From Amoebophrya sp. A120 (Eukaryota; Protista; Dinoflagellata), in the NCBI GenBank assembly GCA_905178155.1, contig CAJINV010000006.1, positions 316,398 through 380,397 of the forward strand: 64,000 nt of DNA, written 5' to 3'. This document shows, piece after piece, positions 33,410-55,199 of this stretch. A model generated the notes under the pieces. The model ran no database searches. It was not told where the DNA came from and saw only the letters and a list, made by a program, of their open reading frames with translations. The first letter of the stretch is position 1. Every line of letters starts with the position of its first letter. A program made the translations under genes and the position numbers.

Positions 33410-33735
33410 TATCAAAAGGAAAAATCCCCCTTCCCCATATCGAAAGGGTATGTTTCCGAAAATTTGTGTTGCTGATTTGAGGTCACAAATCGCATTTGTC
33501 TTGCAAGAAGACAAGGGCAGAAGCTTCCGCCCCATTATGGAAGCGATTTGTCATGCTGTTCTTGGGCCTAAAGGTGAGCCGTTTGCCGTGCTGCACAGCT
33601 AGACCCATACGCCCCTACCTAGCCTGGGGGTCTGGCCGCCGTGCCTTTCTGCAATACCAATCTGATTTGTGTACGCAAATTCAGCATCACAGATTTCCTT
33701 TTTGATATGGGGAGGGGGGATTTTTCCTTTCGATA
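33410..33735. mobile_element. Introner family C downstream of CFAP57 stop (probable 3' UTR)
   Basis: DR TCTTC; absent from paralogous flank near 52475. Confidence 0.9.
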
Positions 33736-33890
33736 TCTTCCGGAGGGAAGCGGAAGTGGAGCACAAACTCTGAAAAAAAGTCAGTACAAAGATGTTGATG
33801 TGTTTCTTTTGTTAGCCCGATTGTTAATACACTGTATTGTAATTTCATAACATTTTACTTGTTAGTTGCCTGTGCCTCCTCCGACCGCTA

Positions 33891-36800
33891 TTATTTGTTT
33901 TGCATGCTGATCATGAGCGGGAACCCATCAGCGGACGCGAATTCCTGCAATTGTTCCCTGGACTTCGCTATGGATTGCAAAAATGTCTGGGTCCTCTGGA
34001 AGATTGCAACTTGTCATGCTAAATCGGAATAATGCAAAAATCTGTGTTGCATGAGTGCCAAAAGCTGTCCACTTTCGACCAAATTGGGACGGAGTTTGAT
34101 TTCTCATGCAGGACAGGCATGGCAGAGACCTCGTCGCTGACTCTGTCATGCGAGGTCCCGCATTCCACACCTCATGGCTGGTCATGGAAAACCCGCATGA
34201 TAAGTTTACACTCTTCCAGACCCAGATGACATATTTGCATTTGATATTCGCATTGGGGAGCTGTTTGTTCTTGCTGTGTCCGATCGGGGGCATTTTTCCG
34301 TTGCTACCGCGGGTCCCATATGAACTGCAAAAGTATCGCACTCGTATAAATGCATTACAAATTTCCTCAGCATGACAGATAAAATTTGTAATGCTGATTT
34401 ACCTCAAGAGAAAGATTTCTAATGCATGATTGCAATACGAATACGATACTTTTGCACACGATATCCCAGGGGTGCGCGGGCCGGCGTTGATGCCGCCCCC
34501 GAGATTATTCGACGGCGTCATCTGGTTGGCGGCGCTGGCTTATCAAATGCAAAAATGTCTGGGTCTGGAAGAATGCAGACTTGCCATGCATGTTTTGTAT
34601 GATGATTGATGCCTCTAATGCATGATCTAGCAACACAGATTTTTCGAGGGCTTCCTAATGCCTATTCCGCATGAGAAATCTCTCCGCGTACCACAAACTG
34701 GAGTCCTGCTGCTGGTCATGCAATGCAGATTTTTTTGGAATCCAAAGACAGCATTACAAGTTGCAATCTTCCAGACCCAGACATTTTTGCAATCCATATG
34801 GCTCCGACGTTCCCGGCCTGCTCGTTCTTTAAAGACTTCAGCTCCATCTCCATTTGCTTTATCTGATAGTTTTTTTTGGCGTAGATTCTCATTTTGTCAT
34901 CCGCATCAACTACACATTGTTCCCATGGGATCTAATCTGTCATGATGCATGAAACAGAATCCACCCGGATCCATAAAACACCGTATAAAAATTTCAGAAC
35001 CGCTCCAAGAACATCATCAGTAAAAAAAGTACCTTGTCCGCGTAGTCCTTTTGACTTCTCCGCAATGCGTTAATTTCCTCAATCAGCATGTATCCACTGC
35101 AAAAGCATCGCACTCGTATAAATGCCAGTCTTGCATTACAAGTCTTGTTCCCAAGGCAAATCAGCATGACAAATTCCATTTCTCATGCTCAGCAAATTTG
35201 TAATGCAATTCATACTAGTACGTTGCTTTTGCAGTTCATAGCATGGAATTTTCCCCGATTTTCCGCAGGTTATTCACCTTTCCCATCTCCGTTTGCTGTT
35301 CGGACTTGGAGGAGAGTTTTTTCAAACTTCTGGACAGCTGCCTCTTCTGCCGGTCCATCTCCTCGATCCTATGTAAAAACGTCCCCATCCCGTAGTCAAG
35401 ATGGGGAATCGGCTAGACAAATCCACAAGCTTTGGCTGTTTTGCATGACAAATTTGGACTCGTAGCGTAGTGCTGCTTGAGCTAGCTCAGCAGCATCACA
35501 GATCTAGTATACCATGCTGATTGGAGCATGACAAATTCCAAAACACGACTAGACAACGCTTCTCATGGGGCTCGGCATGAGAAACATTTTCATCATGCAG
35601 ATTTGCATTACAACTCTGGGTTGGGGACGATTTTAAATACGATATCCTCGATTCCAGCCGCATCCGCCCCGCCGGAACTCGAAGCCGCGGAGTGTGACGT
35701 TCCACTGGTTCCTGGCGGTTTCTTATGCAGAGCAAAAGTATCGCAGTTGTAGTAATTGCAATCATGTATTACAGATGCAAATCTCTTCCCTCCCTCAGGG
35801 AAATCTGCATTACAAATTTCATTTCTCATGCTGAGAAAATCTGTCATGCGATGTATACTATAGTACGATGCTTTTGCATTTCATATTTCTTGGAACTCTG
35901 ACTGGTTCCCGAGCTTCCTTTGTTTCCTCCGCGACCACCTCCCGATGCGGTGCCCGGAACCGGATTGTCACTGGCATAGGTGCCGCTGTAGTCCTGGTAC
36001 AGCTGCCTCAAGTTTTGCAAACCGATCTTGGCTTCATCATTCCCCGCGAAGGTTTTCTCGTGCATCATGCCGTAGAGCTCCCGTTATCAACTGCAAATAT
36101 GTCTGGGTCTGGAAACTTGTGATGCTGGGTAGCGTTTCATGATGAGGCTACAGGTGCTGGCTTAGATCAGATCAGATCAGATAGTTTTTTGTAAATACTC
36201 ATAAAGAGTAAGTTTACAAATGCTCGCTCGAAAGCGGCGGTAGGGACGTTGTGTTTCTGAGCTTCTAGGTGTTGCCTATTCTGCGTGACAAACTGCGTTT
36301 CTGCATCACAGAAAAATGGAGCTTTTGGGGAACGTGCATGACAGATTTAAGAGTCATGTCAGACAAGCATGACAAACATGCATTCTTCCAGACCCACACA
36401 TTTTTGCACTTGATACCCGTTGAAATTTGTTGATGTACTTCTCTAAATCCCTCTTTTCCTCCTCCGTGTGCTTTATTGTGTCCTGCTGGTGCTTATGAAC
36501 TGCAAAAATCTCTGGATGTCTGGAAACTTGTGATGCAAGAAAGGAAATAGTGAGCACACTGTCATGCGCCCCCTAGCATGACAAGTTTTTCCGTAGTTCA
36601 GAGATGCGTGCCGCGCCTGAGAAACTGCGTTTTTGCATGACAGACAAGAGGAGCTCTTTGCGGCCACGCAATACAGAGTTCAGAGTTATTCCAGACTAGC
36701 ATGACAAGTCTCGCAATCTCCCAGACCCAGACATTTTTGCAGTACATAGTGCTTGATCGTGAGTTTCAAATTTTCCAGCGACTTCTGCTGGTTCTGCTCT

Positions 36801-39800
36801 AATTTTAGCTTCTGCACAAATTCTTTCCCCGCATCCTGTAGATGGCCTGTTAACTCTATCGTACGAAAAAACTGTTTCACTGGAAGGATGTTTTTGCAGG
36901 TTCTGCATCACAAGTTCGTTCTACATTGCACAGAGAAGATTTGCCATGCGAGATTCCTAAGGGAAATAAACATAGCTAAAAATCCACGTTCTTGCATATG
37001 AAGCAAGACAAATATTTCTGTGTTCCATTTTATGCATCACAAGTTTAATACAGTGACACAGTTTTTTCTTGCGATAAACTCCGTGATCTTCTGCTCCTTT
37101 GGGAAAATCCGCTCATTCAGAAACTTGAGCTCGGCCTGGTGGTTGGCGGGATTGGGATTGGTTTCGAGCGGTATAATTCCTCGCCTTGCGCTTTACAGTG
37201 CACAAGCATCAGCGATGATGTGTCATGCGGAACAAGCATGACAGATACATTGCACTCATGGAAAATATTAAATCGAGTAAAGTATACAAACTTTAAAATC
37301 ACCACTCTACTATAAATACCTCAAACGCATTCTTGTGCTTCTCTGTTTTCTCTACGGTTTGCTTCAAATCCTGAATTTCTTTGTCCTTCTTTTTCGACAC
37401 TTTTTCCGCCTCCGTCACCTGCGTCTTCAGTGTGGTTATCTGTTCTTGCAGCGCTCCCATCTCCTTGGTCATGCGCTGGGCGTTCTCTTCGTGCTCTTTC
37501 TGGAGGAGCGCGAACCTTGATGTTGTAGATTTTGCGCAGAAAAAAACATTGTTAGTGTAGGATTTTCGAAAATGCATGGATTTTTTTCTTGGTTCAATCA
37601 AAATTATTTCTAAAGCGAACCCCACCGGCCATCGTGCAGCTTCGGGGAGCTTGCGTTATAAATCTGAGCGGGCCAAACTTGCTTTCGTTGCTTTTGTGGA
37701 AGTGAAATAGTTAAGGAGGCTAGACTGCTCGCCAATGCCGCGAGGGGGAGGAGACGATCAGCGAGGCTGTGCCGCGAAGTCTGCTGACCCGCAGTCGCGG
37801 ATTGCTGGTCCTGTCTAATGCCCGAGGCCGGGCTTGCCTCCGACCGGGTCGGCCGCCAGTTACACGGCGCGCGACCACGCAAAGGCCTTCCGCAAAAAAA
37901 ATCGCATCATGCAAAAGTCCTGTAATGCAGAAAGTCCTGTAATGCAGAAAAGGCTGTAACGCGCAAAATCCTGTCATGCATCAAATCACTTTTCCCTTTC
38001 CGCAGCAAATCGCAATGGCTCAAGATCATTCAAAAAAAAAATGCTTCATGCGCAAATCCGAGCATGTCATGCAAATTTAAATGATCTGTCATGAGATCAT
38101 GAAATGCAAATTTTGAATGATCTGTCATGCAAATTTAAATGATCTGTCATGCAAATTTAAATGATCTGTCATGCAATGTCGTGAAATGATCTGTCATGAG
38201 ATCATAATGCATCGGGAAATCGCATCGGAACAAAAATTGCATGATCGGCATGCTTATCAAATGCAAAAATGTCTGGATCTGGAAGATTGCAAGGTTTGTC
38301 ATGCATATTTCGCATGATGTAATCGAGGCCTACATCACAGCGCGAACCTTGATGTTGTAGATGCGCAAAATTTTATTACTATTGAAACTGCAGCAACTAG
38401 CCAAAAATGGCATTCCTACCCTGGTTCCAGGGTAGGAAAAAATGCCCCAGATTTGTCATGCAGATAGAAATGTGCGCTTCCACTTGCATGACAGAAAAAA
38501 ACTGCATGACAAACATAGAATTTGTCATGCAGATTTGCATGCAGTTGCATGAGAGATGTATTTTTTGTCATGCAGATGCAGTTTTTTTGCATGAGAAACT
38601 TCAGGAGCGCGAACCTTGATGTTGTAGATGCGCAAAATTTTATTTGTCATGCAGAACAAATGTCAGCGCTAAAAGTAAAACCAACCCGTAATTCTAATTT
38701 TGTCATGCAGAACACCTACAAATAGTGAATAGTGCTGTAGTCTTGCAGAACCACCAAGAACTATACCTTTGCCTCTCCTTTTCCATAGCGTTTAACCCCC
38801 GTAGCAGCGTCTCTTGCTCTTTTTTCAGTGCGTTGACTTTGAACTGGGACTTATCCTGTGTAACAACGTCCCCCCGATGAACCCAGAGTCAAGATCACGA
38901 TTGTCGTGCAACACAAACCTGAAGGTTTTGGGAGTCCTCACGCATGACATCTTCAAGTTCCTCTCTGTATTGTAGTGCAGTTCGGCTTCGGCGGGAAGGA
39001 CAGCCGCATTACAAATTATCGATCTGCTTCTTTTATCCTTTTTGCACCATTACAAATTCCAGAACACGATTTTGGAATAAATGTCTAGCATGGGGACGAT
39101 GCGCATCACAAATGTTCCTGGTCTTGCAAATCTGCATGACAAGAAAAACTCCGGGGAGGTGCTGGGGACGTTTTTACACAGGATAGGACTCCTGCAAATT
39201 TTTCGTTGCTTGGTCCATCAAACCCGAGATCTCGTGGTCCCTGTCCTGTTCTTCATCCTTTAAAATTGTGTTGTACCGCTGCTCTTATCCCACGAAAAAA
39301 GTGTTACAGCTCCACATTTGTAGTGAATTCAGCAACACAAATTTCTCTGCATGAGAGAGAAAATTTGTAATGCAGAAATCCTGCGGGAAAACACCTATGG
39401 AACGAGGCTCCTATGCATATCCGGCATGACAGAGCTTGTCTGTCTTGCTCGGCCTGCAACACAATGTGTAACTGTAACACTTTTTTCTTGCGATAGCTCT
39501 ACGTACTTTATCAGCGCTTTGTACTTTGCAATTTCTTCTCCCTGGTATGCAAGTGCACAACTCTACTCCCTTCTCCTCATTTGAACGGTAACGGGGGCTT
39601 ATTATACAGCAATAGAAACACCAACGAATACGAACGACATGGAGCCTGTGCATGACAAGTCTCTACAACCGCGCCTCCTGGTGTAGAAGTTCCCCTGTTT
39701 GGGCTTTTGGAATTGGAATTTGTCATGCAAACAGTGCCAAAAGACAGCAGGAGGAACAATTGGCGTTTTGTCAATGACAAATGAGGAGAAGGGGGGGTTG

Positions 39801-42800
39801 TGGACCACCCTGATACCTTGTCCGCATTTTCGATTCTCAAGTCCTTTTCGGTTTTCTCCGCTTCGTTTTTCAAATCTTGCTTATCGAGAGCAAATATGTC
39901 TGGGTCTGGAGGAGTGTAACTGTAAACTTGTCATGCAGGTTTTCCATGATCCATGAGGTCTGGAATGCGAGACCTAGCATGACAGACTCTATGAGGTGGT
40001 CTCTGTCATGCCTATCCTGCATGAGAAACTCCTTCCCAACTTGGTCGAAAGTGGACAGCTTTTGGTAGTACTCACGCAACGCAGATTTTTGCATGCTTCG
40101 GATTTAGCATGACAAGTTGCAATCTTCCAGTCTCAGACATATTTGCAATCCATATTGCTTCGTTTTATCCAACTTTTCGGCCGCTTCCTCTCTCGCGATG
40201 TACATCTCCTTGGTCCGGTATGAGAGTGCACAAGAACTCCCCCTCCCCCACGTTTGTGTTGCATGAACAGCAACACAGGCGCTGCTAAAGATGCACCTTT
40301 TGCATGACAAATTTTATTGACAGGAGTGTAGTGCTGTTTTGACTTTCGGAGTGAGTCTGTCATGCAAAAGGTGCTAACAGGCAAACCGTAGATTTGGGAT
40401 TTTGCATGACAAATGAGGGGGAGGGGGAGCTATGTGCACTTTCATATCAGTTGCGAATACCGGTCGTTTTCCATTTGGAGTTTCGCAGAGTACATACCCT
40501 CCAGCTGCTCTTGTGCCGCGATGTGCTGGGCCTCTAACGCTTTCACCATCCGAACGGGTTCCTGTAGAAGTTTTATGTCGTGTTGCGAATGCGATTTCCA
40601 TTTCACGCAACACGCATTGCCATTGTCATGCGCAGCATCAAACTTCAACTTCATCTTTAACATTCCCCAGAAACAGCACCATTGTCACACTATTCTATAC
40701 CTGTTCCCTTTCCTGAATAATATCCTCCAATAGCACTATCCTTTCCTTCAATGCTTCCACTTCTGACTTCTCACTCGTATGGATTGTAAATATCTTTGGA
40801 CGTTTGGAAGATTCTGAGACTTGTCATGCACGCTTTGCATGAGCCATGATGTTTGTGATGCATGCCCTAGCATCAAAGTTTTTTTGAGGGCTTCTTGATG
40901 CCTATTCCGCATGACACATTATGTCCTCTTCATCGCGTAGCAAAAATTACATCCCCTTTGCTGCTTATGCAATAGAGATTGTTTCGGAGTCCAAATGTAG
41001 CATCACAAGTTCCGCTGTCCCAGACCCAGACATATTTGCATTCCATAACTCGTTATCTTCGTCGACTCTAATCTCGCCTCGTACGCGTACCTCTGTATGA
41101 CCTGCTCAAGCGGTACAATCTCAAACGTTACATAAAGAATCTGGAAATCTGTGATGCAAAAGGTGCATGACCTAGCCTACTCCCACAGCATTGCGCATGA
41201 CAAGTTCTGGAGTCCTCCCAAACCGCTCTAGAACAATCTGGCAGAATTTGCATTGCAGAAAGTGGAACGCTGCGCGGGTCTGTCATGCTCATCATGCACT
41301 ACAAAATCCAGATTCTACTGTAACGTTTGAGACTGTACCGTTCGAGCGGGTCATACTCTGCTGGTCTAGCTTCTGCATGCTATCCAACTCGATTTGCTTA
41401 ATCTCGTGGTTCAACTTCTCGACCTGATCTTCCAGTTTTACCAAGTCTTGTTTTTCAATCAAGCAAATCTCGTCGCCCTTCGGCTATCCTTTGCGAAAGC
41501 GTCTCCACCCCATAGTCAAGCTGCTGGTAAGTCCGCAACACAAATCTCCAAGCTTTGGGAGTTGTGCATGACAAGTTTCCCTCTGCAGTGTAGTGCTGGT
41601 TAGCAAGAAGGGAGGCCACAAGAGAAAGCTATTTTCTCATCCTGTTTACAGCATGACAAATTCGACAACACGATTGGAAATGCCTCTGCTCATGGAGCTG
41701 CGCATTACAAGTGTTCCTGTCATTGCGCATTTGCATCACAACTCTGGGGTGGGGATGTTTTTACTTGGGATATCGGCAATTTCTTCGCCATGTTGCTGTC
41801 CTTCGATGGACTGGAAGTTTTCTGCATTGCAAAAGTACTATCGTCGTAATTGTAATCACGCATTACAAATCGAAATCCTCATCCAAAGGTGGATTCGCAT
41901 GACAAATTCCATGCGTCTTCATACAGAGGCAACTTGTAATGCAAAGACTGCTAGTGCGATATTTTTGCAATGCATAGGTTTTCTGGGACTGCAGTTGCTT
42001 TTTCGACGTGGAAGAGGACGATGGTGTCTTCCCCGCTTGTATCCTAGGCAAAAACGTCTCCACCCTAGATTTGTGATGCATATTCGCATATCAGAAACGT
42101 TTCTCATGCGCAGCAACATACATGAGAGGCATTTTTTCATGCTCTTTTGCAGTTTGTCATGCTATTATCAGGATAAGGAAATCGATTTCTGATGCGGCTG
42201 CAGTACCTACCCGGCACTACGCTACAGATCGAAGCTTGTCATGCGTAGGTCCCACAACTAACAGCTGGCTGTGTGTTGCAAAATCCTCATCTTGACTCTG
42301 GGGTAAAAGCGTTCTTACACAGGATATCTTTCGCCGGTGAAGCCGCTGCGGCTTGCTGTTGCTGGGAAAAGGAGCTCCGGGTGGATTTGGTTTTGTCTAC
42401 CTCGAACTGGTCCTGGACGGATAACAGGAAGATGCTGCCATCCAAGTATCCCGAGGAAAAGCGTCCCCAACCCATAGTCACGATGGGAAATCTGCTAGAC
42501 AAATCTACAAGCTGAGGGCGTTGCGCATGACAAGTTCGGCCTCGTACTGTAATCCTGTTTACCTCGTTCAGAAGCATCACAAATCTAACCCACCATGCAG
42601 ATTCGAGCATTACAAATTCCAAATAAACCCGACTAGAAAATACCTGTCATGGGGCCCCGCATGAGAAACATTTAATTTTGAGCATGCGCTTTTGCGTGAC
42701 ACCACTGGGGTAGGTACGTCTTTACGCAGGATACTAAGGACGTGGTAACCATCCGATTCTCGCCGGGGAGTAAGGCGCAGAGAGTCGGACCCTTGCGTTA

Positions 42801-45800
42801 TTTGTACATAGCGTTTCCAACAAAATCAAAAAGATGAAAAACTACCGCTTGGGTCGTTCTTTGGAATAGATGTGATTACGGGAGGACATGACGATCGTTT
42901 GCGAGGGGATGTTCGAGCGTTATTTTTTCTAGTACTCGAAATGCATAAAGAAACCGAAAACAGTCTGGTGGTCCTGCATTGAAGAATGAGTCACTCCAAA
43001 AAATATTTTCTTCGCAAATTTGCCAAACAAGAAGCATGTCATGATTACAGTGACAGCACAAGTATATAGCAAATATCCAAATCCTGCTCCAACTGTTGTA
43101 TTGTTTCGTAGAACCATAAAGTATAGTACGTCCTTACCGACGCCCTGTTGTTTTTCCTCCTGACACAGTGCACGAAAAATTCCTCGTAACTCGCGCTTTT
43201 GCTGAGTGGAAACGGGTAACTCCAAAGCGTGCCGCTTGTTGTCGTCGCAAACAACGTGGTTCCCCCGTATGTCGTATCCTGTGCAAAAGCATCGCACTCG
43301 CATTGCAATCATGCATTACAAATCTTTTTCTTGAGGCAAGTCAGCACTACAAATGTTCTTTCTCATGCTGAGGAAATATATTTGTCATGCATTTCTACGA
43401 GTACGATACTTTTGCAATTCATATTTCGCCGCCGCGTTGGGTAAGGAGTCCAAATATCAAATGCAAATATGTCTGGGTCTGGAAGAATGCAACTTGTGAT
43501 GCTGCGTTTGGATGTCTAGAAAATTTGTGTTGCATGACCAGCAAAAGGAATCTAATTTTTGCTACGCGGAGAGGGCATTTGTCCTCATGCGGAACAGGCA
43601 TCAAGAATCCCTTCAAAAAATTGTGATGCCAGGGCATGCATTACAGACATCATCGCTCACGCAAACCATGCATGACAAGTCTCAGAATCTTCCAGACCCA
43701 GACACTTTTGCATTTGATACCAAATCCCGACTTGCCATCAACCAGGCCGAGTCTCGCTGTTCGTCACGGGACAGAGCGAGTAATTTCCTATCAAACGTGA
43801 CAGAGCAAATCGACTCTTTCGCGGCGTCGGGTAATTCCAACTTGCAGGCTAGCTCCACGTTCGCGAGTAGTTCGGGATTCGTGGCGGACTCGGAATTCGC
43901 TATTGGCGTCAAATACAGGTCGTACAACCTACCACAGTATCGACATTGCAAAAGTGCATCAGGCATGACTAGTCTCCCTCTCGAGCTGAACGTGAACTCG
44001 CATTAGCATTACAAATTCCATGATTTTGATCTTGATTTGTCATGCTACGAAAAATTTCTCATGTAGTTGCGCTTGACATACTTACGGTGCTTGATGTTCT
44101 CTTGCAATGCGTACGTACGTTTTCCCCAGCGATTCCTTCGTATTCAGCGTTTTGAAAGATAGCGCCACGACCCACCGTATCAAATGCAAAAATGTCTGGG
44201 TCTGGGAAAATTCAGACTTGTCATGCATATTTCGCATGCCCCATGACGTCAGGAATGCAGGACCTAGCATGACAGGTCCTGCGAAGTCTCTATCATGCCA
44301 ATCCTGCATGAGAAACTCCCGCTCATGTTGGTCAAAAAAGGACAACTTTTGGTGATCACGCAACACAGATTTTTGTGTGACCCACGGGACGCATCACAAG
44401 TTCCATCCTCCCAGACGTCCAGGGATTTTTGCATTTGATACATCGCCTCCGGTTCGTCGTCACGTCCCCGTCGAAGGCGATGGTCGCGTGGAAATTTTTA
44501 TCCTGTGCAAAAGTATTAATTGCGTTTATGCATTACAAATCTTTTTGCTAAAAAGGCAAATCCGCAGTACAAATTCAATCTGTAAAAATGCTAGGTCAAT
44601 TTGTAATGCAACAATTACACTAGTACGATACTTTTGCAGTTCATAATTTTCGTACAGGGAAAGTAACTGCGACCGTGCGCCCATGGATTTCTTGTCCTCT
44701 TCTATCCTGTGCAAAAGTATCGTGGTCGTAGTAATTGCATTTCTGCATTACAAATCTCTTTTTCAAGGTAAATCAGCATTACAAATCAAATTTGTAATGC
44801 TGGCCTAATTTGTCATGCAATTTATACTAGTACGATGCTTTTGCATTGCATATCTTCCGTTAGCAAACAATTTATCAACTGCAAATATCCCTGGATGCCT
44901 GGAAGATAATTGGGAGACTTGTCATGCAGGTTTTCCATGAGGACCCAGGAGGTCTGACGTGCAGGACATAGCATGACAGATTCTGATGTAAGATCTTTCT
45001 CATGCCTAGCCCGCATGAGGAACTTTTGCTCGCAAATTGATGGTCAACAAAAGTGGACATCAACTTTTGGTAATCACGCAACACAGATTTTTTCACAGTC
45101 CAGACTTCGCATGACAAGTTGCATCCTTCCAGACCCAGATGATATATTTGCAGTTGATACAATTCCCGTCGGTACAGTCTTTGTGCGGTTCGAGGTAATA
45201 CTCGGCGATTTTGTGGTAGTTTGACATGTCCCACACGTAGAACGACCCGTCGATGCCGACCGTCGCCATGGTAAGCGCCTGAAAGTCGAAACTCACGTCC
45301 GCGATGGGGGAGGTGTGCTTCTTGATGGTAACCTGGAAAAGTTTTTATGATGATCTTCATTTGGCAGCTACTTCTATTGAGTTTTTTGCATGACAGCGCA
45401 ACGTTATTATCTAGCTTCCCGCATCACAAGTTTTTACTTTTATTGTTCCACTTGTTCTCTATCAAAACCATATGCATATTTTTTTATACCAGTTTGTTCA
45501 GGTTCAGCGTCTCCAGCACGGTTAAGAACTTCCCATAAATCACCACCAAATAGTTCCCATTGGTCGGACTGTACACCACTTTTTTCAAATTTGCAAACCG
45601 GAGTTCTGCGTACTGCTGAATTTTGTTGGCGAGCAAGTATGGAGAGGAAAAAGTTTGTCACAGTCACGAACTTGCAGGTTTGGCATTACAAATTTTTTTT
45701 AGCATCGCAGCTTTTCCGTGTATTGCAGAAGCACTAGGGGAATCCCTTGAGAAGTTTTGGTGCTGTGATGCATTTTTACGCGTAGCAGGAAGCTTTGTAT

Positions 45801-48800
45801 TGCAAAGATGCGCAAGAGTGATCGTGACGAACTTTTTTTGTTTGATAGCAAGTGGAACATGCGCAAGGTTCCGTCCGCGAAGGCTACCGCGCAGCTGTAG
45901 CCGTCCGGGTGGATCGCGCATTGGATCGGCGCTTTTTCGCTGGTGAAAAACGTGCTCATATTGAGAGGAAAAATCCCCCCTCCCCATATCGAAACGTTAT
46001 AATCTTTCCGAAAATTTGTCTTGCTGATTTGAGACCACAAATCGCGTCTGTCTTGCAAGAAGACATTCATCCACAGGCTCTGCCGCATTATGCAGGCGGT
46101 TTGTGATGCTGTTGGGCCTACAGCATAGACGTTTCTCATCGACTAAGCGCCTAGGCGAAAAGCTTTCTACTCAGGCTTAGCAGGAGCCTGCTGGTGTCCT
46201 CTACTGCAAGACAAACCTGATTCGTATAGTACGCAAATCCAGCATCAGAAACTTGCTTTTGATATGGGGAGCGGGTATTTTTCCTTGTGATAGCTCAGTT
46301 CCAATTCCAGCGTCTCGTAGTTGTACAGCCTCAAAGAGTATCAAATGCAAATATGTCTGAATCTGGAAACTTGTAAATGCAAATCAGCGAACACTAAGCA
46401 CTCTGTAATGCACCGCCAAGCATGACAGGTTTTTTCGTCGCGCTGTGTAGTTGCGTATTCCGCATGACAGGCACAGGGAGCTGCTTGTGGCCACGCAACA
46501 CAGAGTCCAGAGTCATGCCAGACAAGCATGACAACTCTCGCAGTCTTCCAGGCCCAGACATATTTGCATTTGATAAAGAGCTGTCGTCCTTCGAACCGGC
46601 GCACGTTAAGAACAGTATGACAGTGCACAACTCGTCCCCCTCCCCCTCATTTGTTTAGCATGAACGGCAATACAGGCATCAGCAAGAATGCCGGTTCAGC
46701 ATGACAAATTCAAGTACACTGGAGTGTAGTACTATTTTGGGCTTCCAGAGCTTGTCATGCATGAGAGTGACAGGAGGGACACCAGTCTAGAGTTGGCGTT
46801 TTGCATGGGAAATGAGAACGAGGGAGTAGAGTTATGCACTCTGATAAACAGCGGTCGCAGTTCCGAATTCGCAGAGGACACAGACAACACCGGTCCAAAG
46901 TGCGCGGCGAGGGATATGGCGAAGTTCTCAGACGGGTTACATTCCCAACACTTACATGAATTTGTCATGCAGAATCACAATCACGCTTCTCACGATAAAG
47001 CTTCTTCGCATGACAAGTTTTCGACAAGCTAAACAGCATTACAACAGTCTGTGCCAAATCTGTAATGCAAGACGTGCAAGGGCAAGGCCCCCCCTTTTAC
47101 TTTTGCGTGTAGTTTTTGCATCACAAATTCATCATGTAACAGTTGAGAATGTAACGTTTGAGAACGCCATAAGGGATCGGTTGGCCGGGAAGGTGAGTTT
47201 CTCCTTCGCCAGATACAATTCCGCTAGATTCACGTAGCAAAAATCCCCATCCGCAAAGGCTTATGCATTGCAAAAGCATTGTAATCGCAGTAATTGCAAG
47301 CAGGCATGACAAATGTTGAACTTGAGCTGAATTTGCATATACAAATTGATGCTTTCATGCTAAGCAAATTGAAATTTGAAACTGCAAATTTTTATACCAT
47401 TTACTACTCGTACGACCACACTTTTGCGATGTATAAGGCCAACACCACTCCGGCCTGGCTGTTTGTGCCGGAGGTGTTTGAAGACGACTGCTATGAGAGT
47501 GCACAAGAACTCCCCCTCCCCCTCATTTGGATGGCAACATCCGTAGCAACACAAACGCTAGCAAAGATGCAGCTTTTGCATCACAAATTTGCGACCGATT
47601 GTTCTAGTGGTGACTCGGCTCCTTTCGGAACCTGTCATGCATAGTAGTGCCAAGAGGCAAAAGGTGGATTCGGTGTTTTGCACGACAAATGCGTTGGAGG
47701 AAGAGCTCCTGTGCACGACTCTCATAACTGCTGTTGGCTTTGCACAATGCCGGCGTTGGCAGTGTCGATGCCGTGCTGCTGCAAAATCTCCTTTCCGAAA
47801 AACAGTTCGTCGTCAACGGCAATGTCGATGGAAACCACGTTCGACTTCCTATGCATTGCAAATATGTCTGGGTCTGGAAAGTTCAAGTTGCAACTGGTGA
47901 TGCTGGATTTGGATTCCACAAGAAATCTGTATTGCCTGAACAGCAAAAGAGGTTCAGTTTTTGCCATGACGACAGGGCATTTCTGATGCGGTGTGGGCAT
48001 CAGGAAGCCCTCATAAAATCTGTGCTGCTAGGGCATGCATCACAGACATCAGAAGTCATGCAAAATGCGCATGACAAACCTTGCATCCTTCCAGACATCC
48101 AAGGATATTTGCAATGGATACTTCCTGCCGGTGTACAAGTTCCGGACGAACCGGTAGCTGTGCGAGTCCAGCCGCTCCCATATCAAAATGAAAAATCTCC
48201 CCTCCCCATGTTTCCGAAGATTTGTGTTGCTGATTTGAGGCCACAAATCACATGCGTTTTGCAAGACGACAAGGGCAGAAGCTTCGGCCCCATTATGGAA
48301 CCGATTTGTCATGCTGTCGGGCTTAAAGGGGAGCCGGTTGCCATGCTGAACAACTAGACCCATACGCCCCTGCCTAGCCTGGGGATCTGGCCTCGATGCC
48401 TTCCTGCAATACAAAGCTGATTTGTGTACACAAATCCAGCATCAGAAATTTCGTTTTGATATGGGGAGGGGGGATTTTTCCTTGCAATATCCCAAATCCC
48501 CAAGTACCCATCGCTCCCCGCAATGATAAACCCCTTCTGGAAGGTGCAGATCGCCAATGGTTTCACCTCTTCGGAGATCGTATCGTCAAAACAATCCTGC
48601 AGAACCTCTACGATTTTCAGTGTCTGAGAATCCACCAGGTAAATCTCCTGCTTCTGGCTGTTGACCGCCAGAATTTCCTTCTGCTTCGCCCACAACTTCT
48701 GCAGCAGCTGCAGACGCGGTTTTTCCTTGGAATTTATCGAAAGGAAAAATCCTCCCTCCCCATATTGAACCGGAAACCTGCTCTGTTGCTGGATTTGTGT

Positions 48801-51800
48801 ACACAAATCAGGTTTGTCTTGCTGGAGAGGACTGCAGACACATTTCAAGTCTGAGCCGAGAGGTATTGGCCTAGGCGCTTAGCGTGACAGACGTCTACGC
48901 TGTAGGAGCAAGAGCATGACAAACCGCCGGCAGAAAGCGGCGGAGCCTGTGGGGTTGCCTTCATGCAACACAGAGACCATTTGTGGTCACAAATCAGCAA
49001 CACAAATTTGCGAAAACGTACGTTGTCAATATGGGGAGGGGGATTTTTCCTTTTGATAGAGTTATTCGGAGCAGCGGGCTCCGTGTCGGAGGTGGTGTTA
49101 TTGTTGCCTCCAGAGGCGTATCAACTGTAAAAATGTCTGGGTCTGGAAATTTGTGATGCTGTGTGGCATATCATGAGGAGGCCACAATTGCTGGCTCGGC
49201 ATGACAAGTTTCTGAGCTTCTAGGTGTTGCCTATTCTGCATGACAAACTACGTTTCTGCATGACAGAAAAGTGGGGCTCTTTGGTAATGTGCATGACAGA
49301 CTTAAGAGTCATGCCAGACAAGCATGACAAACTTGCATTTTTCCAGACCCAGACATTTTTACATTTGATAAGGCGTTTTTCGCGGGCATCGGTATAGGGC
49401 TCTCAAACGTTATATTCTCGAACTGTTGCTGCATGGATTTGTGATGCAAGAATGGCAGAAGGGAACAAATACAAAGGTCGGATCTTGCAACTTTTACATT
49501 ACAACTTCGGCACAGATTTTTGATGTCCCCATGCTGGTAATACCCTTTTTGAAATTTGTCATGCGAAGTAGATTGGCCGTGTGGATGTTGATGTTCATTT
49601 TGCAAGACAAATTCATGTAGCAGTTGAGAAGGTAAAACCGATTTGTGAACGCCATAATCGGCCCGGTCCATGTGTAGGTGGAGAAGATGGTGGTTTCCGG
49701 ATTGATTTTGTCTCCCTCGAAGTCAGGAAACGGCCGGAGGTCGCGGGACGTGGTGTTGTACCTGTGATGGCGAGAGTAGCTAGTTTGTCATGCAGAAACC
49801 AGAAAAAGAGATTCATTTTGTCATGCAGAACCCTGGAAAAAAAACACATTTTGTTATGCAGAAACCAGAAAAAGAAATCCATTTACATTTTTTCATGCCG
49901 AACACCGGATAATAAAAAATTTCTCAAAAATAAGTAGTACTTGTAAAGCTTCAAGTAGCCCCCATTCCCGGACAGCAGCAACAAGTTCGAATCGTAGGGC
50001 GCGAACGCATCAAGTGCAAATATCGATGTGGGTGCTCTGGAAAGTTGCATGCAATTTGTCATGGTGGTCCTTGCATGCCAGACGCTTGTTCCTTTGTACA
50101 ACCCGCAGAACAGCATGACATCACGTGCTCCTCGGCAACTTACAAGAAGTTCTAGTGTGTTTACTGCATGACAAACTGAGTTATTTTTTCACAGCATGTG
50201 CATGACAAAAAAACGGGCCATGATCGTATCTATGCATCACACATCCTTGCTGTCCTTCCAATTTCGCATCACAAATCCAGACCCAGATCGATATTTGCCG
50301 TTGATAGAACGTGACTTTCTGCAACTCCAACGGCAAGGTTTGCTCGCACAGCACCGTCAACGAGTAATTCACCGTGTTCAACTATCCCACGAAAAAAGTG
50401 TTACAACAGTTACACACCCGTAGTGAATTGAGCAACACAAATTTCTCTGCATGACAGAGAAAACTTGTAATGCAGAAATCCTACTGGAAAACACCTATGA
50501 AACGAGGCTCCACCTATGCATATCCGGCATGACAGAGCTTGTCTGTCTTGCTTGGCCTGCAACACTACAATGTGTAACTGTAACACTTTTCTCTTGTTGC
50601 GATATCAACTCACAAAGCTGCAGAATCGTCCCCGTTCGCGCACTGAAAAACGTCGTGGGGTCTTCATACTGTGGGGTCAAAAGCGCTTATAACAGTGCAC
50701 AGCTCCCCCTCATTTGTACTCTAGCATGAACGGCAATACAAGCATCAGCAAGAATCAGAATGCCGGTTTTGCATGACAAAAAATTTGCACTGGATTGTAA
50801 TTCTATTCGGGCAGCTACCAGAACTTGTCATGCACAATAGTGACAGGAGGGAAAGCGTGGTTTTGGTGTTTTGCATGAGAAATGAGAACGAGGAGGAGTT
50901 CTTTTGCACGGCCATAGCGCTACCCGGGTGTGGTTGGCGTCGATGGCACAGCTCGTGTAGCCGCTTCTTTTCACATTCAACCCGAGGTTGTCGGTTGTGG
51001 TTCCCTGGAAACTGTTGTTACTCGTCAAGTTGTAAATCGTCACTTGGCCGCCGTTGGAGTTCGCGCTGGTACTTGAGCTGCTGCTGGTGCTTGTCGTGGT
51101 TTCGCAGGAGACGATGAAAGTTTTATCTAACGAAACCGCAAAACTGGTGATCGCCTCCACGCTCGTGCTCGCCGTGTATTACAGTGAAAAATGCCCCCCA
51201 CCGCTAAAAGTAAAATTGCAAAAAATTGTGATGCAAAGCTTCCAAATGAAAACTTTTTGTCATGCATGAAAGGAGTATGAATCTTTCTGATGCAGAGTGG
51301 AGGCGTGTATCGCATCGCTTGCATGACAAGCGCCGCTTTTGCTGGCGTATTTTGCAATACAAATTTTTGCTATTCACGATTGGAAACCTGTGATGCTGAT
51401 AGATGCAAGAGGGCGAAGGTTTCATTTGGAAAGGTTTGCAACACAAATGCTTCCAAGTTCGGGGGTGGGGGCATTTTTCATTGTAATACCGTGGTCGCTT
51501 GCTTCAGGAAGTAGCTGTCCGTTATCAAATGTAAAAATGTCTGGGTCAGGGGGATTTCTAGATTTGTCATGCATATTTTCCATGACCCATGATGTCTGTC
51601 ATGCATGCCTTAGCATCACAGATTTTTAGAGCGCTTTGTGATGCCTCTACAGCATGAGAAACGACCTCTCCGCGTCGCACAAACTGGAGTCCTCTTGCTG
51701 GTCATGCAATACAAATTTTTTCAGTATCCAGAGACAGCATCACAAGTTTAGAATGTTCCAGACCCAGACATTTTTACATTTGATATCCGTGTTGGTATAG

Positions 51801-51943
51801 ACATTCCGGATACACAAGTACCTCCCCACGGGGAAAATGATGTGCGCCGAGTCCAGAAACTTCACGTGCTCCTGGGACAGCAGCGCCTGGGAGTGGGACT
51901 GGGAGCCCCAGGCGTGGATGATGGAAAAGTTGTTCGACGCCAT
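33891..51943 (-). CDS. CFAP57: Cilia- and flagella-associated protein 57 (WDR65)-like; WD40 repeats plus C-terminal coiled coil; about 44 introners plus several GT-AG introns
   Basis: Reconstructed peptides match my recollection of CFAP57 in order: FLDSAHIIFPVGRYLCI, VEAITSFAVSLDKTFIVSCE, HFGPVLSVS..TCAG..LRLYNYETLELE, IQCAIHPDGYSCAVAFADGTLRMFHLL, KHTSPIADVSFDFQALTMATVGIDGSFYVWD, LFATTTSGTLWSYPFPL, MLIEEINALRRSQK. Ends GFPLMISMQNK-TAA at 33891. A few canonical-intron boundaries (~37200, ~40600-40700, ~42800-43170) unresolved. Confidence 0.88.
33969..34246. mobile_element. Introner family A
   Basis: DR TTCGC; removal gives frame to the stop. Confidence 0.9.
34319..34463. mobile_element. Introner family B
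   Basis: DR TCCCA. Confidence 0.9.
34541..34798. mobile_element. Introner family A
   Basis: DR TGGCT. Confidence 0.9.
34863..35032 (-). other. Canonical GT-AG intron
   Basis: AAG|GTACTT...TATCAG|ATA gives YADK|IKQMEMELK. Confidence 0.8.
35091..35240. mobile_element. Introner family B
   Basis: DR GCATG. Confidence 0.9.
35365..35644. mobile_element. Introner family F (left end GAT)
   Basis: DR TCCTC. Confidence 0.85.
35724..35885. mobile_element. Introner family B
   Basis: DR TTTCT. Confidence 0.9.
36085..36415. mobile_element. Introner family A with internal insertion
   Basis: DR CCCGT; extra segment starting with (AGATC)n at ~36163-36250. Confidence 0.85.
36494..36748. mobile_element. 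Introner family A
   Basis: DR GTGCT. Confidence 0.9.
36857..37076. mobile_element. Introner family E
   Basis: DR AACTC. Confidence 0.9.
37516..38766 (-). other. Long GT-AG intron with triplicated acceptor, octamer arrays and truncated A element (38255)
   Basis: AG|GTATAG...CATCAAG|G gives MEKERQR|FALLQKEHEE. Confidence 0.7.
38065..38205. repeat. About 22-bp tandem repeat ATGATCTGTCATGCAAATTTAA
   Basis: 5-6 copies built on the introner octamer TGTCATGC. Confidence 0.85.
38852..39185. mobile_element. Introner family F
   Basis: DR GGACT; frame restored. Confidence 0.85.
39286..39495. mobile_element. Introner family E
   Basis: DR GCTCT. Confidence 0.9.
39546..39815. mobile_element. Introner family D
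   Basis: DR CCTGG/CCTTG (4/5). Confidence 0.85.
39882..40154. mobile_element. Introner family A
   Basis: DR TTGCT. Confidence 0.9.
40219..40446. mobile_element. Introner family D
   Basis: TATGAGAGTGCACA...TGTGCACTTTCATA; DR 3/5. Confidence 0.85.
40778..41047. mobile_element. Introner family A
   Basis: DR ACTCG; empty site at 52999-53003. Confidence 0.92.
41096..41355. mobile_element. Introner family H
   Basis: DR CTCTG; empty site at 53275-53279. Confidence 0.92.
41485..41772. mobile_element. Introner family F
   Basis: DR TCGGC; same insertion site in paralogue at 53665. Confidence 0.9.
41821..41976. mobile_element. Introner family B (left end TCT)
   Basis: DR AGTTT/GGTTT (4/5). Confidence 0.85.
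42040..42326. mobile_element. Introner family F
   Basis: TIR clear; DR GCTTG/TCTTT (3/5). Confidence 0.8.
42447..42733. mobile_element. Introner family F
   Basis: DR CCAAG/CTAAG (4/5). Confidence 0.85.
43275..43423. mobile_element. Introner family B
   Basis: DR TGTCG/TTTCG (4/5); frame restored. Confidence 0.9.
43455..43719. mobile_element. Introner family A
   Basis: DR CCAAA; frame restored. Confidence 0.9.
43929..44085 (-). other. Hybrid intron: canonical GTAAGT...TAG around a decayed B-type introner (43938-44080)
   Basis: Removal gives REHQAP|LYDLYLTP and skips an in-frame TAA. Confidence 0.75.
44178..44440. mobile_element. Introner family A
   Basis: DR CACCG/CATCG (4/5); frame restored. 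Confidence 0.9.
44499..44645. mobile_element. Introner family B
   Basis: DR ATTTT; frame restored. Confidence 0.9.
44703..44852. mobile_element. Introner family B
   Basis: DR TCTTC; frame restored. Confidence 0.9.
44873..45159. mobile_element. Introner family A
   Basis: DR CAATT; frame restored. Confidence 0.9.
45333..45489 (-). other. Canonical GT-AG intron containing introner octamers
   Basis: CTG|GTATAA...TTTTCCAG|GTT gives NLNKL|VTIKKHTSP. Confidence 0.85.
45638..45847. mobile_element. Introner family E-like
   Basis: DR GCAAG. Confidence 0.85.
45959..46292. mobile_element. Introner family C
   Basis: DR GCTCA. Confidence 0.9.
46339..46575. mobile_element. Introner family A
   Basis: DR AAGAG. 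Confidence 0.9.
46616..46846. mobile_element. Introner family D
   Basis: DR AACAG. Confidence 0.9.
46915..47171. mobile_element. Introner family H
   Basis: DR AGGGA. Confidence 0.9.
47262..47435. mobile_element. Introner family B (diverged)
   Basis: DR AGGCT/AGGCC (4/5). Confidence 0.8.
47492..47726. mobile_element. Introner family D
   Basis: DR ACTGC. Confidence 0.9.
47850..48120. mobile_element. Introner family A
   Basis: DR CTTCC. Confidence 0.9.
48181..48489. mobile_element. Introner family C
   Basis: DR TCCCA. Confidence 0.9.
48735..49058. mobile_element. Introner family C
   Basis: DR GAATT/GAGTT (4/5); opposite orientation to 48181 copy. Confidence 0.88.
49119..49370. mobile_element. 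Introner family A
   Basis: DR AGGCG. Confidence 0.9.
49393..49656. mobile_element. Introner family H
   Basis: DR ATCGG. Confidence 0.88.
49762..49940 (-). other. Canonical GT-AG intron made of tandem octamer-containing repeats
   Basis: AA|GTACTA...CATCACAG|G gives YLKLYK|YNTTSRDL; internal repeats TTTTGTCATGCAGAAACCAGAAAAA. Confidence 0.8.
50008..50306. mobile_element. Introner family A (diverged, left end CAT)
   Basis: DR GAACG. Confidence 0.8.
50383..50604. mobile_element. Introner family E
   Basis: DR TCAAC; very similar to 39286-39495. Confidence 0.9.
50688..50916. mobile_element. Introner family D
   Basis: DR GCGCT. Confidence 0.9.
51177..51488. mobile_element. Introner family G
   Basis: DR CCGTG; frame restored; reverse orientation of 13753 copy. 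Confidence 0.9.
51523..51785. mobile_element. Introner family A
   Basis: DR TCCGT; frame restored. Confidence 0.9.
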
Positions 51944-51960
51944 TGTCGTTAGTAGAAGCG

Positions 51961-52069
51961 TACTCAGTGCAAATGTGTCTGGGTCTGGAAGATTTTTATT
52001 TTTTGGAATCCAAGACGAGTAGCATCACAAGTTCCATCTTTCAACACCCAGACACTTTTGCATTTGATA
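51961..52069. mobile_element. Short (109 bp) family A derivative just upstream of the CFAP57 ATG
   Basis: TACTCAGTGCAAATGTGTCTGGG...TTTGCATTTGATA; DR AAGCG/AAGCA. Confidence 0.8.
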
Positions 52070-53024
52070 AAGCAAGTAGTGGTGACGAGATTTCTTCTAC
52101 CCCGTGGTATTCAGCGTCGTCGAACAACAGATTCCTTCGCGGAGAGTGGTGAAGCTTTTCACTGTGTGAATGTAGTCGTTTTTGAGGCAGTAGTCGGCGA
52201 CGAGCTGTCTTCACGCATCGTTTTGACTTGCTCTATAACATTCTTTCCCGCGCACTGACTCTACTCACGACAGCCGCACAGCTACCCATTTTTTCACGAC
52301 TGCTGTTCCCGTATAGTTCTATAAAGAAGTTTTCATTTTGGTGAACAAGTCGAGATAGGAAAAATAACGAAATTCTGGTTGTAAACAAATTACGAAATTC
52401 TGGTTGTAACAAAGGTGCGTGAATAAAATGTATTTTTCCAGCAGTGCGATACAAGTTATTTTGAGTTCGTTCCTTTTTCCGGGGGGAAGCGAAAGTGGAG
52501 CAGAAACTCTGAAAAAAAGTCAGTACAATGAAGTTGTGTTTCTTTTATTAGCCATAGCCCGCTTGTTAATACACTTACTATCATTTCATAACATTTTGCT
52601 TGTTAAGTAGCTGCCTCCTCCGACCGCTATTATTTGTTTTGCATGCTGATCATGAGCGTTTTGTCAATGACGAATGAGGAGAAGGGGGGGTTGTGGACCA
52701 CTCTGATACCTTGTCCGCATTTTCGGTTCTCAAGTCCTTCTCGGTGCTGCGCCTCTAACGCTTTCACCATGCGGACGGGTTCCTGGAGAAGTTTTATTTC
52801 GTGTATTTTTTTTGTTGCGAATGCGATTTCACGCAACATGCATTGTCATTGTCATGCGCAACATCAATCTTTAACTTCATCTTTAACGTTCCCCAGAAAC
52901 AGCACCGTTGCCACCATATTCTATACCTGTTCCCTTTCCTGAATGATATCCTCCAATAGCACTATCCTTTCCTTCAATGCTTCCACTTCTGACTTCTCAC
53001 TCGTTATCTTCGTCGACTCTAGTC

Positions 53025-53252
53025 TATCCAAAGAAAAAGATTGTAGCTGTGACTTTCATCTTGCTGGAACAGCATGACAAATCCGTCTGGCATGGGACGA
53101 GCAACGACCTGTTATGCGCAGATAGTACGCGAAAAGGAAAACGCCACTGGCATTGAATGGGCGCTACTATGCATGCCCAGCATGACAGACGCACTCATCT
53201 TGCAGGTTGCGCATCACAAAGTTACAGGCTAACAATGTTTTTTTCTTCGATA
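53025..53252. mobile_element. Introner family J
   Basis: DR TAGTC; empty site (TAATC) at 41069. Confidence 0.92.
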
Positions 53253-53292
53253 TAGTCTCGCCTCGTACGCGTACCTCTGCTGGTCTAGTTTC

Positions 53293-53548
53293 TCTCAAAT
53301 GCAAAAGTGTCTGGGTCTAGAAACTTGTAATGCTCGGTTGGGCATAGTGAATGCTCTGTAATGCAGAGCCAAGCATGAGAAATATCTGCGCTGCTTAGTG
53401 TTGCGCTGTTCGCATGACAAAATGCGTGTTTGCAACGTGATAGGCAAAAGGCTCTCTTCTTGGTCACGCATCACAAACTCTTCAGTCATGCCAGACAAGC
53501 ATGACAAACCTTGTATTCTTCCAGACCCAGACATATTTGCAATCCATA
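53293..53548. mobile_element. Introner family A (left end TCT)
   Basis: DR GTTTC; empty site (GCTTC) at 41369. Confidence 0.9.
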
Positions 53549-53664
53549 GTTTCTGCATGCTGTCCAACTCGATTTGCTTAATCTCGTGGTTCAACTTCTC
53601 GACCTTATCTTCCAGTTTTACCAAGTCCTGTTTCTCAATCAAGCAAATCTCGTCCCCCTTCGGC

Positions 53665-53785
53665 TATCCTTTGCGAAAGCGTCCCCATCCCATAGTCAAG
53701 CTGCTGGTAAATCCGCAACACAAATCTCCAAGCTTTGGGGTGGGGACGTTTTGACTATGGGGTGGGGACGTTTTTACATATGATA
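53665..53785. mobile_element. Chimeric family F element
   Basis: Left flank TCGGC equals the 41480 site, right flank GCGTC equals the 45507 site. Confidence 0.8.
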
Positions 53786-53825
53786 GCGTCTCCAGGACGG
53801 TTAAGAACTTCCCATAAATCACCAC

Positions 53826-54094
53826 TATCAAATGCAAGTGTGTCTGGGTCTGGAACAAGGTTGGAACCTGTCATGCAGCCTTCACCTGACCCGTGACGTC
53901 TGTGATGTATTCCCTAGCATCACAGAAGATTTTCTGAGTGCTTCTTGATGCCTATAATTCTGCATGACAAATAACCTCCCCGCGTAGGACAAACTGCACT
54001 CCTCTTGCTGGTCATGCAATACACATTTTTTTAGAATCCAAAGTTAGCATCACAAGTTCCAACTTTCCAGACACAGACATGTTTGCACTTGATA
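53826..54094. mobile_element. Introner family A
   Basis: DR ACCAC; empty site at 45542. Confidence 0.92.
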
Positions 54095-54161
54095 ACCACC
54101 AAATAGCTCCCATTGGTCGGACTGTACACCACTTTTTTCAAATTTGCAAACCGGAGTTCTG

Positions 54162-54430
54162 TATGAACTGCCAAGGTATCGTACTCGTATAAATGCATTA
54201 CAAATCTTAATCTCCACAGCATGTAAAACAAATTTCTCTGCATGACAGAGAAAACTTGTAATGTAGCAGATTCTGACTATCCGCATACTTCGTCGCGTAT
54301 CCAGCCTCTTTCGATGCCGCGTTGCAGTTGTACATGTCTAACTCTCCGTAGTTCAAGTAGATGTGATATCCTGTGCAAAAGTACCGCACTCGTATTCCAG
54401 TCATGCATTACAAATCTTTTTCTTAAAAGC
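54162..54430. mobile_element. Two truncated family B left halves (54162, 54367)
   Basis: TATGAACTGCCAAGGTATCGTACTCGTA and TATCCTGTGCAAAAGTACCG without matching right TIRs. Confidence 0.65.
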
Positions 54431-55199
54431 TGTTCTATAAAGAAATTTTCATTTTGTTGAACAAGTCGAGATAGGAAAAATAACAGCATCCGTAAACAGT
54501 CAAGCCGCTTTTGCTCTCAAGCTACTTTTGCTCTCAAACCACTTTTATCCTCCCTCATGCTGAACTACTAGCACCACAGAAGCCCTTCGTCCCTCACCAC
54601 ATACTGCGTTTTTTGTTCACTCAGAAACGTCGCCGTGCGACAGCCCGTAACATCTTCACAATATCAAGTGTAAGTTAACACGTCGTATTCCAGGTTTGCC
54701 CGTTGCGTGTGCAGTGGTAACTCCTTACATTTGTACTCATCTCTCGCAGCGCCAGCCCCTAGCTCTAAACACGGCGAAGATAGAAGAAGAAAAGGGCGAA
54801 CAAAGTGAAGCCTTAGCCTACAACTTCGGCCACAATTTTTCCGAAGCAATAGAATTGCTGAAGTTCATTCAAAGAACCCGCTTTACCGGGGCAGCAAGAG
54901 CCTGCTTGCTGATGAGTTTGCTGGTATTCCTCGAAGATAAAGATGAGTTCGCTGACGTTTGCACGCAGGGTTTTCTAGCACCATCATCATTGCAGCCAGA
55001 AGCAGCACGCTTGCAACTACTTTCGACCCGTCGCGGGCTGGGACCGCGAGTGCAAGGGAGTCGGTGTCAACCGCCCGGGGGTCCTCTGTAAGTGCTTATG
55101 CAAGGAAAAAGCACGACAGCGCTCAGTAAGTGCTGTGGTGGAGTACTTCTTGTGCTTCATCTGGTGTCCAATTCATATCACAAATTGCACAAAACACAC

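Follow-up and report, generated by a model that had tools for sequence, protein, structure and literature searches.

Introner differences between a CFAP57-like gene and its collapsed tandem copy in Amoebophrya sp. A120

Introners of Amoebophrya sp. A120 are described as carrying inverted repeats of 8-20 nt that start with TAT, an A-run, and direct repeats of 3-5 nt (PMC7789003). How quickly such introns turn over between close copies of a gene, and whether they do so by gain or by loss, is the question raised by a locus on contig CAJINV010000006.1. The window, i.e., the whole stretch of DNA that was analysed, comprises 64,000 nucleotides. The initial annotation had described two CFAP57 paralogues here that differ by five introners.

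The main gene and its shortened neighbor

33891..51943, minus strand: main CFAP57-like gene (protein P0001), from the tblastn map; WD40 propellers and coiled coil

The host is Amoebophrya sp. A120, which is also the source label of P0001 (1534 aa), the one protein that a 42-residue exon of the main copy matched at 100%. P0001 was mapped by tblastn to 51943-33894 on the minus strand. The full protein gives WD-propeller Pfam hits, and a Pfam scan of seven single exons returned weak WD40-type hits only, all below the cut-off. Eight solved structures match the gene at E ≤ 1e-5 with their best stretches within the WD40 part, and two of the matches are named CFAP57 (E 3.5e-16 and 4.5e-15). Judged by its sequence, the main gene is CFAP57-like, with WD40 propellers followed by a long coiled coil and with CFAP57 as its best structure matches. 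It holds 43 introners within the coding span and one in the 3' UTR. These 44 elements carry inverted repeats at their termini and are flanked by 5-nt direct repeats (identical 5-mers in 35 of them); they occupy 11,172 of 18,565 bp and are missing from P0001, i.e., removed from the annotated protein.

Sequencing runs X4 and X5 were taken as RNA since their contigs are spliced; none of the runs listed as containing the sequence is recorded as RNA. The leader of the main gene contains an internally deleted A introner (51961-52069, 109 bp), spliced as 114 nt in X4 and X5. An ordinary intron at 37512-38760 (about 1.25 kb) contains part of an A introner as well as internal repeats, compared to a length of about 160 bp in the metagenomic relative L001 introduced below. 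In X5, the 3' contig of the main gene has a depth of 281 and the 5' contig a depth of 30 (33873-41443 region). Reads of run X9 over the main gene stop at 41443, where 196 of them end in a sequence that we take to be a cDNA adapter. The skew of X5 and X9 toward the 3' part may reflect 3' bias or an internal start.

The second copy lies upstream of this gene and comprises the following parts:

52316..52368: end of the duplicated unit, 53 bp, 51/53 identical to 54432-54484; its T-run on the minus strand is a putative promoter box
52361..52415: junction of the duplication, with imperfect microhomology (about 8 bp) and 28 bp duplicated locally
52416..52658, minus strand: copy of the last codons, stop, and 3' UTR, homologous to 33380-33919, without the C introner
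52710..52781, minus strand: fused exon, 39816-39852 plus 40524-40560, deletion junction near 52745
52782..52925, minus strand: ordinary GT-AG intron, also present in the main gene (about 40561-40700); an RNA contig specific to the copy has it spliced
54162..54260: broken B-type introner (45608 site), copy only, unspliced in RNA; provides the ATGs of the remnant ORF (54243, 54222, 54198)
54261..54431, minus strand: foreign piece, a P0002 exon fragment and half a B introner
54432..54484: second 53-bp unit end; ancestral flank from 54485

The copy is a tandem duplicate of a unit at about 33350-52368, of which the upstream member has collapsed from 19 kb to 2.1 kb and is bounded by the 53-bp direct repeat. 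It retains homologues of about 980 of the 19,019 bp in four collinear blocks (33350-33919, 39763-39852, 40523-41559, and 45506-45608 of the main gene), whose similarity is not due to chance given blastn E-values of 1e-13 to 1e-95. As a gene, the term paralogue does not hold: 138 aligned codons plus the last 8 of 1534 are kept, which makes the copy a collapsed remnant and not a full-length gene. Both copies of the 28-bp duplication match 33349-33378, and deletion junctions at 52657 and 52745 show microhomology of 2-3 bp. The foreign piece aligns at 54261-54365 to residues 1268-1305 of P0002, another A120 protein encoded on a different scaffold (84% over 38 aa, two in-frame gaps). Its 26-codon part at 54288-54365 has no homologue within the window or in P0001. 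A 42-bp match (95%) between 54225-54266 and an element at 50434, which could mark a third introner common to both copies or a motif inside B elements, was left out of the counts.

Could the copy be an assembly artefact, or a second haplotype wrongly placed in tandem? Exact DNA contigs at single-copy depth cross its main junctions and speak for real DNA. The contig 51761-52658 (depth 29.7 in X1 and 44.7 in X2) runs from the first main exon across the duplication junction; others cover 52629-52975 (depth 42), 52975-53326 (three pieces, 43-46), and 54234-54800 (44). The exact main-copy pieces listed have depths of 22.8-40.8 (vs 29.7) and 43.5-47.7 (vs 42-46). A second haplotype is disfavoured because full-depth contigs would not connect it to the main gene. 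The artefact reading gains something from the fact that X1 and X2 come from one sample, from which the assembly itself may have been built, and that among the DNA pieces listed none bridges 53326-53378 or 53471-54050. Against it, the full-depth contigs span the main/copy junction and two deletion junctions, and RNA contigs cross both the 52745 junction and the joint that connects the exons on either side of the hybrid F element described below. We therefore consider an artefact highly improbable.

The window contains further repeated stretches, i.e., a degenerate tandem duplication at 25750-29022 and 29005-31593 (blocks 72-92% identical, with GC-rich stretches) and a very GC-rich stretch followed by short imperfect tandem repeats at 55500-56300, similar in make-up to 29900-30400.

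Introner differences, their rate, and their direction

40778..41047: A introner (ACTCG), main only; both copies aligned
41096..41355: H introner (CTCTG), main only; both copies aligned
53025..53252: J introner (TAGTC), copy only; main empty site TAATC; DNA contigs bridge both ends
53293..53548: A introner (GTTTC), copy only; main empty site GCTTC; left terminus TCTC, not TATC
53826..54094: A introner (ACCAC), copy only; main empty site near 45546
33410..33735: C introner (TCTTC), 3' UTR of the main gene; missing from the copy and from L001
41485..41772: F introner (TCGGC), main; first 75 bp common to the copy, with 3 differences
39546..39815: G introner, common to both; last 53 bp kept in the copy at 52656-52708, with 2 differences

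All five coding introners named in the initial annotation were recovered where it had placed them, flanked by identical 5-nt direct repeats and bounded by terminal inverted repeats, and each is missing from the aligned exon of the other copy. The single 5-mer that it had ascribed to every empty site is exact at three of the five, the other two carrying one synonymous change each. The F introner, which it had called shared, is common to both copies for its first 75 bp; the copy's version (53665-53785) is a hybrid. G is a second shared introner that had been overlooked. The proposed spacing of all differences within a few hundred coding bases needs correction for A 53826, whose site lies 4 kb away in the main gene and which is near the others in the copy because the intervening sequence was deleted there. 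The difference at C 33410 in the 3' flank is confirmed as an element of the main copy's 3' UTR; it sits 480 bp beyond the stop, and X9 reads cross the empty form of its site. Two more copy-only elements are broken, namely the end of a reverse F (45507 site) and the start of a B (45608 site), and each has one edge that coincides exactly with an inverted-repeat terminus, next to the 5-mer expected there. This brings the differences to five complete and two broken coding sites plus one UTR site. In the six private complete elements, 10-15 of 16 terminal bases pair, five start with TAT (A 53293 with TCT), and the 5-mers are identical in all six, which is not the case for the hybrid F. The elements are repeated elsewhere in the genome: each has relatives in the window at 75-86% identity, and the roughly 48,000 DNA contigs placed on 15 kb were swamped by such introner relatives. 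The claim that several families were active holds, as four (A, H, J, and C) changed within a dS of 0.16.

Over 138 codons, 12 synonymous changes (83 sites) and 3 non-synonymous ones (331 sites) separate the main gene from the copy (dS 0.16, dN 0.009, dN/dS 0.056), and 7% of the positions in non-coding blocks differ (36/514). One scan of metagenome contigs yielded 134 candidate stretches, among which L001 is the only relative. It covers residues 1125-1534 and the 3' flank, with 408 of 409 codons aligned, a dS of 0.187, and a dN of 0.009 relative to the main gene; two of its nine non-synonymous changes lie at intron edges and are probably alignment artefacts. Six coding introners are common to L001 and the main gene, four are found in the main gene only and five in L001 only, with clean empty sites. 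Turnover is thus not peculiar to the duplicate, since this orthologue, from a sister lineage, differs at 9 of 15 coding introner sites. The five L001-private introners (579-841, 1164-1484, 1908-2060, 2548-2787, and 3300-3607 of that contig) resemble families of the window, so the same families were active in both lineages. A second coding pair in the window, 2810-3558 and 21160-21846 (83% identical), provides another within-genome difference, with H at 2984-3235 (GAGAA) in the former and a short C at 21320-21512 (GCGAG) in the latter, at sites about 15 bp apart.

Altogether, 15 complete filled/empty site pairs were found, with elements that lack an ORF. The 14 complete coding differences, when pooled, give a rate of 0.047 per coding site per synonymous substitution (95% interval 0.026-0.079), or 0.054 with the two broken elements added. 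The initial annotation had called this turnover fast relative to point mutation. Per site that is not so, as the rate is about 20 times slower than synonymous change. The claim does hold against amino-acid change (14-16 intron differences vs 10-12 amino-acid differences) and against other eukaryotes, as gauged by a fungal rate. Roughly one intron change has occurred per 100 coding bases within 16-19% synonymous divergence. Neurospora figures of 5.8-6.9e-13 gains per site per year vs 8.0e-9 synonymous substitutions, as given in PMC4317165, correspond to 8e-5, compared to which the A120 value would be about 600-fold higher if all changes are gains.

We infer that most of the differences are gains. 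The outgroup L001 covers one of the eight main/copy differences, C 33410, and there polarises it: the element is missing from both the copy and L001, so that parsimony, on these sequences, favors a gain in the main lineage (one gain vs two losses). For the other seven, precise excision repaired on the 5-nt repeat leaves identical empty sites. Clean empty sites can remain after the excision of cut-and-paste elements that have target-site repeats, and the differences could in principle be mostly losses, in which a transposase removed ancestral introners and the site was mended on the 5-nt repeat. Several features would fit such losses: direct repeats are mismatched in three of the five L001-only elements, as expected of old elements lost from A120; the terminus of A 53293 is mutated; and a 157-bp single-copy contig inside J indicates that this element has no near-identical sibling in the DNA contigs. 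On the other hand, C 33410 would require two losses, the sequence at two empty sites matches neither repeat of the filled site, and the ancestor would have needed 9 introners in about 414 coding bases, compared to the gene's 1 per about 105. No transposase is reported for A120 in the sections of PMC7789003 covered here, which weakens excision and transposase-driven gain alike. Loss mediated by cDNA is disfavoured because ordinary introns are unchanged at four of four sites and because the private elements interleave 13-18 bp apart (copy A, main H 13-18 bp off, copy J, main A); complete introners, by comparison, differ at 15 of 23 sites and ordinary introns at 0 of 4 (Fisher p = 0.028). Decay of the direct repeats in the main gene (11/220 sites, in 9 of 44 elements) implies a mean introner age close to the age of the split, so that about half of the elements should be younger, as found. 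Mismatches in 3 of the 15 private complete elements fit gain and loss alike (about 2-3 expected under gain, about 5 under loss). Mostly precise loss is an explanation to which we give little weight.

Transcripts of the remnant and the splice register

53665..53785: hybrid intron, 75 bp of the shared F and the end of an inverted second F (45507 site); 5-mers TCGGC/GCGTC
52162..52709, minus strand: new GT-AG intron, 548 nt; donor in the G remnant, acceptor in the main gene's leader
52097..54243, minus strand: predicted remnant ORF upstream of the main gene, which presumes removal of J and both A elements

X4 contains exact copy-specific spliced contigs at a depth of 23-27 (20.7 for the main gene's 5' contig) with joints at 53660/53787, 52781/52926, and 52161/52710. 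The first removes the hybrid F as 126 nt and joins a WD40 exon in frame to a coiled-coil exon. The two F elements that make up the hybrid come from sites 4 kb apart, and its hairpin is predicted at -55.1 kcal/mol (z = -5.35, 0/200 shuffles). A single X4 contig crosses the 52745 junction, removes the shared ordinary intron, and then the 548-nt intron, the joint of which carries 28 nt on its short side. RNA depth is zero inside J and both copy A elements, which may point to their splicing; no copy-specific joint is listed for them. The stretch 54178-54399 is unspliced. None of the RNA contigs seen covers the G remnant.

With the 548-nt intron spliced, the predicted ORF encodes 171-186 aa and ends at 52097-52099, in frame with the ATG of the main gene; with the intron retained, it encodes 176-191 aa and reaches the native stop codon (52630-52632). 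The stop at 52097-52099 lies between the remnant ORF and CFAP57 and rules out that the two are fused in frame. In X5, 52070-52641 is joined to main mRNA and 54178-54436 is present at a depth of 4-7, with no contigs for the copy's middle exons. X9 reads over shared blocks carry main-copy letters (228/228 at 52466 and 94/94 at 52945). Run X10 has no reads at 51900-54800. The contigs cannot place the remnant and the main gene on one molecule.

The splice register was narrowed at introners whose two direct repeats differ. The only split that fits all nine such introners of P0001 and both informative RNA joints is 1 nt ahead of the inverted-repeat element and 4 nt behind it, as read along the transcript strand; the count leans on the annotated protein. 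Under this register the donor/acceptor pairs vary widely across 47 elements, and the ends are not GT-AG. This suggests that cuts are measured from the hairpin and not from GT-AG or matching direct repeats, and the hybrid intron would still be spliced because its cuts are so measured. The main text of PMC7789003, as far as covered here, leaves the position of the intron border relative to the hairpin open. The hybrid intron thereby offers a natural experiment on non-canonical splicing, in which matching repeats and GT-AG are unneeded and cut sites become placeable. To our knowledge, U1 has not been found in the A120 lineage.

Origin of the copy and relation to known systems

In the block common to the main gene, the copy, and L001 (233 ungapped columns), unique changes number 11, 9, and 9, respectively, i.e., a star. 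Because the three are equidistant, the copy is probably a diverged allele that was placed in tandem; this origin is drawn from one 233-column block and the equal dN, and the equal distances may be coincidence if L001 is another species. The alternative already named in the initial annotation, that alleles would turn the result into presence/absence polymorphism, is borne out to the extent that the differences probably lie between old alleles or lineages, with both copies now on one chromosome. Neutral evolution of the copy since duplication predicts about 27 non-synonymous changes where 3 are observed (binomial p = 0.0003), and the copy's branch has room for no more than about 2% of neutral change, a quarter of its length. 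A long-lived full-length upstream duplicate is less likely because the unit ends inside the 3' UTR, as 236 X9 reads continue past 33350. A sexual stage of A120 is probable according to bioRxiv 10.1101/2025.04.10.648098, as far as that source was covered.

On balance, we lean toward a real tandem duplicate that was cut from 19 kb to 2.1 kb and whose introner differences are independent transposon-like insertions into two functional lineages, probably diverged alleles that were later joined on one chromosome. Introners would have inserted by cut-and-paste or copy-paste in both lineages, duplicating 5 nt, while purifying selection would have acted on each of the two during three quarters or more of the time since they parted. 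The two diverged haplotypes may then have been joined by microhomology-mediated unequal or template-switch recombination, and the joined copy would have collapsed late. Deletions, most of which end inside introners, left the four collinear blocks and the fragment of another gene. One RNA run shows transcription of the remnant and the removal of introns assembled from introner halves that do not match. If the distance from the inverted-repeat hairpin determines where splicing occurs, a deletion between two introners could yield a working intron that fuses distant exons.

A different history would have the duplication be old, the collapse early, and the product a selected mini-gene of 170-190 residues (one WD40 strand group and the first 93 coiled-coil residues) or an upstream-ORF regulator of the main gene, with introners gained after duplication. 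The retained blocks lack stops and frameshifts and have a dN/dS of 0.056, two of them are joined in frame by the hybrid F intron, and retention of the 548-nt intron brings translation back into the frame of the native last codons and stop, the two frames together having about 1 chance in 9; the depth of the copy contigs in X4, moreover, equals that of the main 5' contig. Working against this history are start codons that lie inside a broken introner, the frame shift introduced by the 52745 junction, X5 and its lack of the middle exons, the main-copy letters of the X9 reads, and a search of proteins of 75-2000 aa that returned no such protein. The 3 non-synonymous changes in the copy equal the 2.1 expected between functional orthologues, so selection after the collapse is unneeded. 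We deem this history unlikely, though worth keeping in view.

Extending it, and offered tentatively as a speculation that we doubt, introners may act as exon-fusion modules: hairpin-measured splicing would let any deletion between introners leave a working hybrid intron, and in this way distant CFAP57 exons could have been combined with a captured leader and a start taken from an introner into an expressed, selected mini-gene, which would regulate or partner the full-length cilia protein, with half of the genome's introners younger than about 8% synonymous change. The locus illustrates a route from introner invasion to new gene structures and provides a calibrated intron-turnover rate in a genome under current invasion, which makes gain vs loss testable with few strains.

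FoSTeS/MMBIR template-switch duplications show short microhomologies and small duplications at their junctions. The locus resembles them in its microhomology, local duplication at the junction, collinear skipped segments, and the piece from another scaffold, and a one-event origin of this kind is indistinguishable here from several later deletions.

By their sequence, the elements are members of the A120 introners of Farhat et al. 2021 (PMC7789003), with which they share TAT repeats, the A-run, non-canonical splice sites, lengths of about 150-330 nt, and tens of copies per gene. These introners are already known from that work, as is presence/absence polymorphism from Micromonas (PMC3879977, PMC4540971). 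In the parts covered here, PMC7789003 compares strain A25 with A120, whose families are strain-specific, and gives no dS-based rate and no closely related pair. What the present locus adds to it is one register (1+4) that fits and spliced hybrids of two elements. Our literature search turned up neither a hybrid introner nor a rate for close lineages of A120; subscription papers (Roy et al. 2023) and the supplement of PMC7789003 were outside its scope. Several DNA-transposon introner families are active in A120 according to PMC12130899, and the elements share terminal inverted repeats, target-site duplication, and lack of coding capacity with the MITE-like introners treated there. Aureococcus is such a MITE-like case as described in PMC7789003; the splice ends found here, unlike those of the MITE-like system, are not GT-AG. 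As in the Neurospora study (PMC4317165), gain was scaled to dS between close lineages. Micromonas likewise has repeated introns that differ between close strains and metagenomic sequences (PMC3879977, PMC4540971), with 31 common vs 149 and 66 private IE-C sites in PMC3879977. Its introners, as these two sources describe them, lie in sense orientation, whereas those of A120 occur in either orientation with inverted repeats, and the differences at this locus, unlike those of Micromonas, amount to about 1 per 100 coding bases of one gene.
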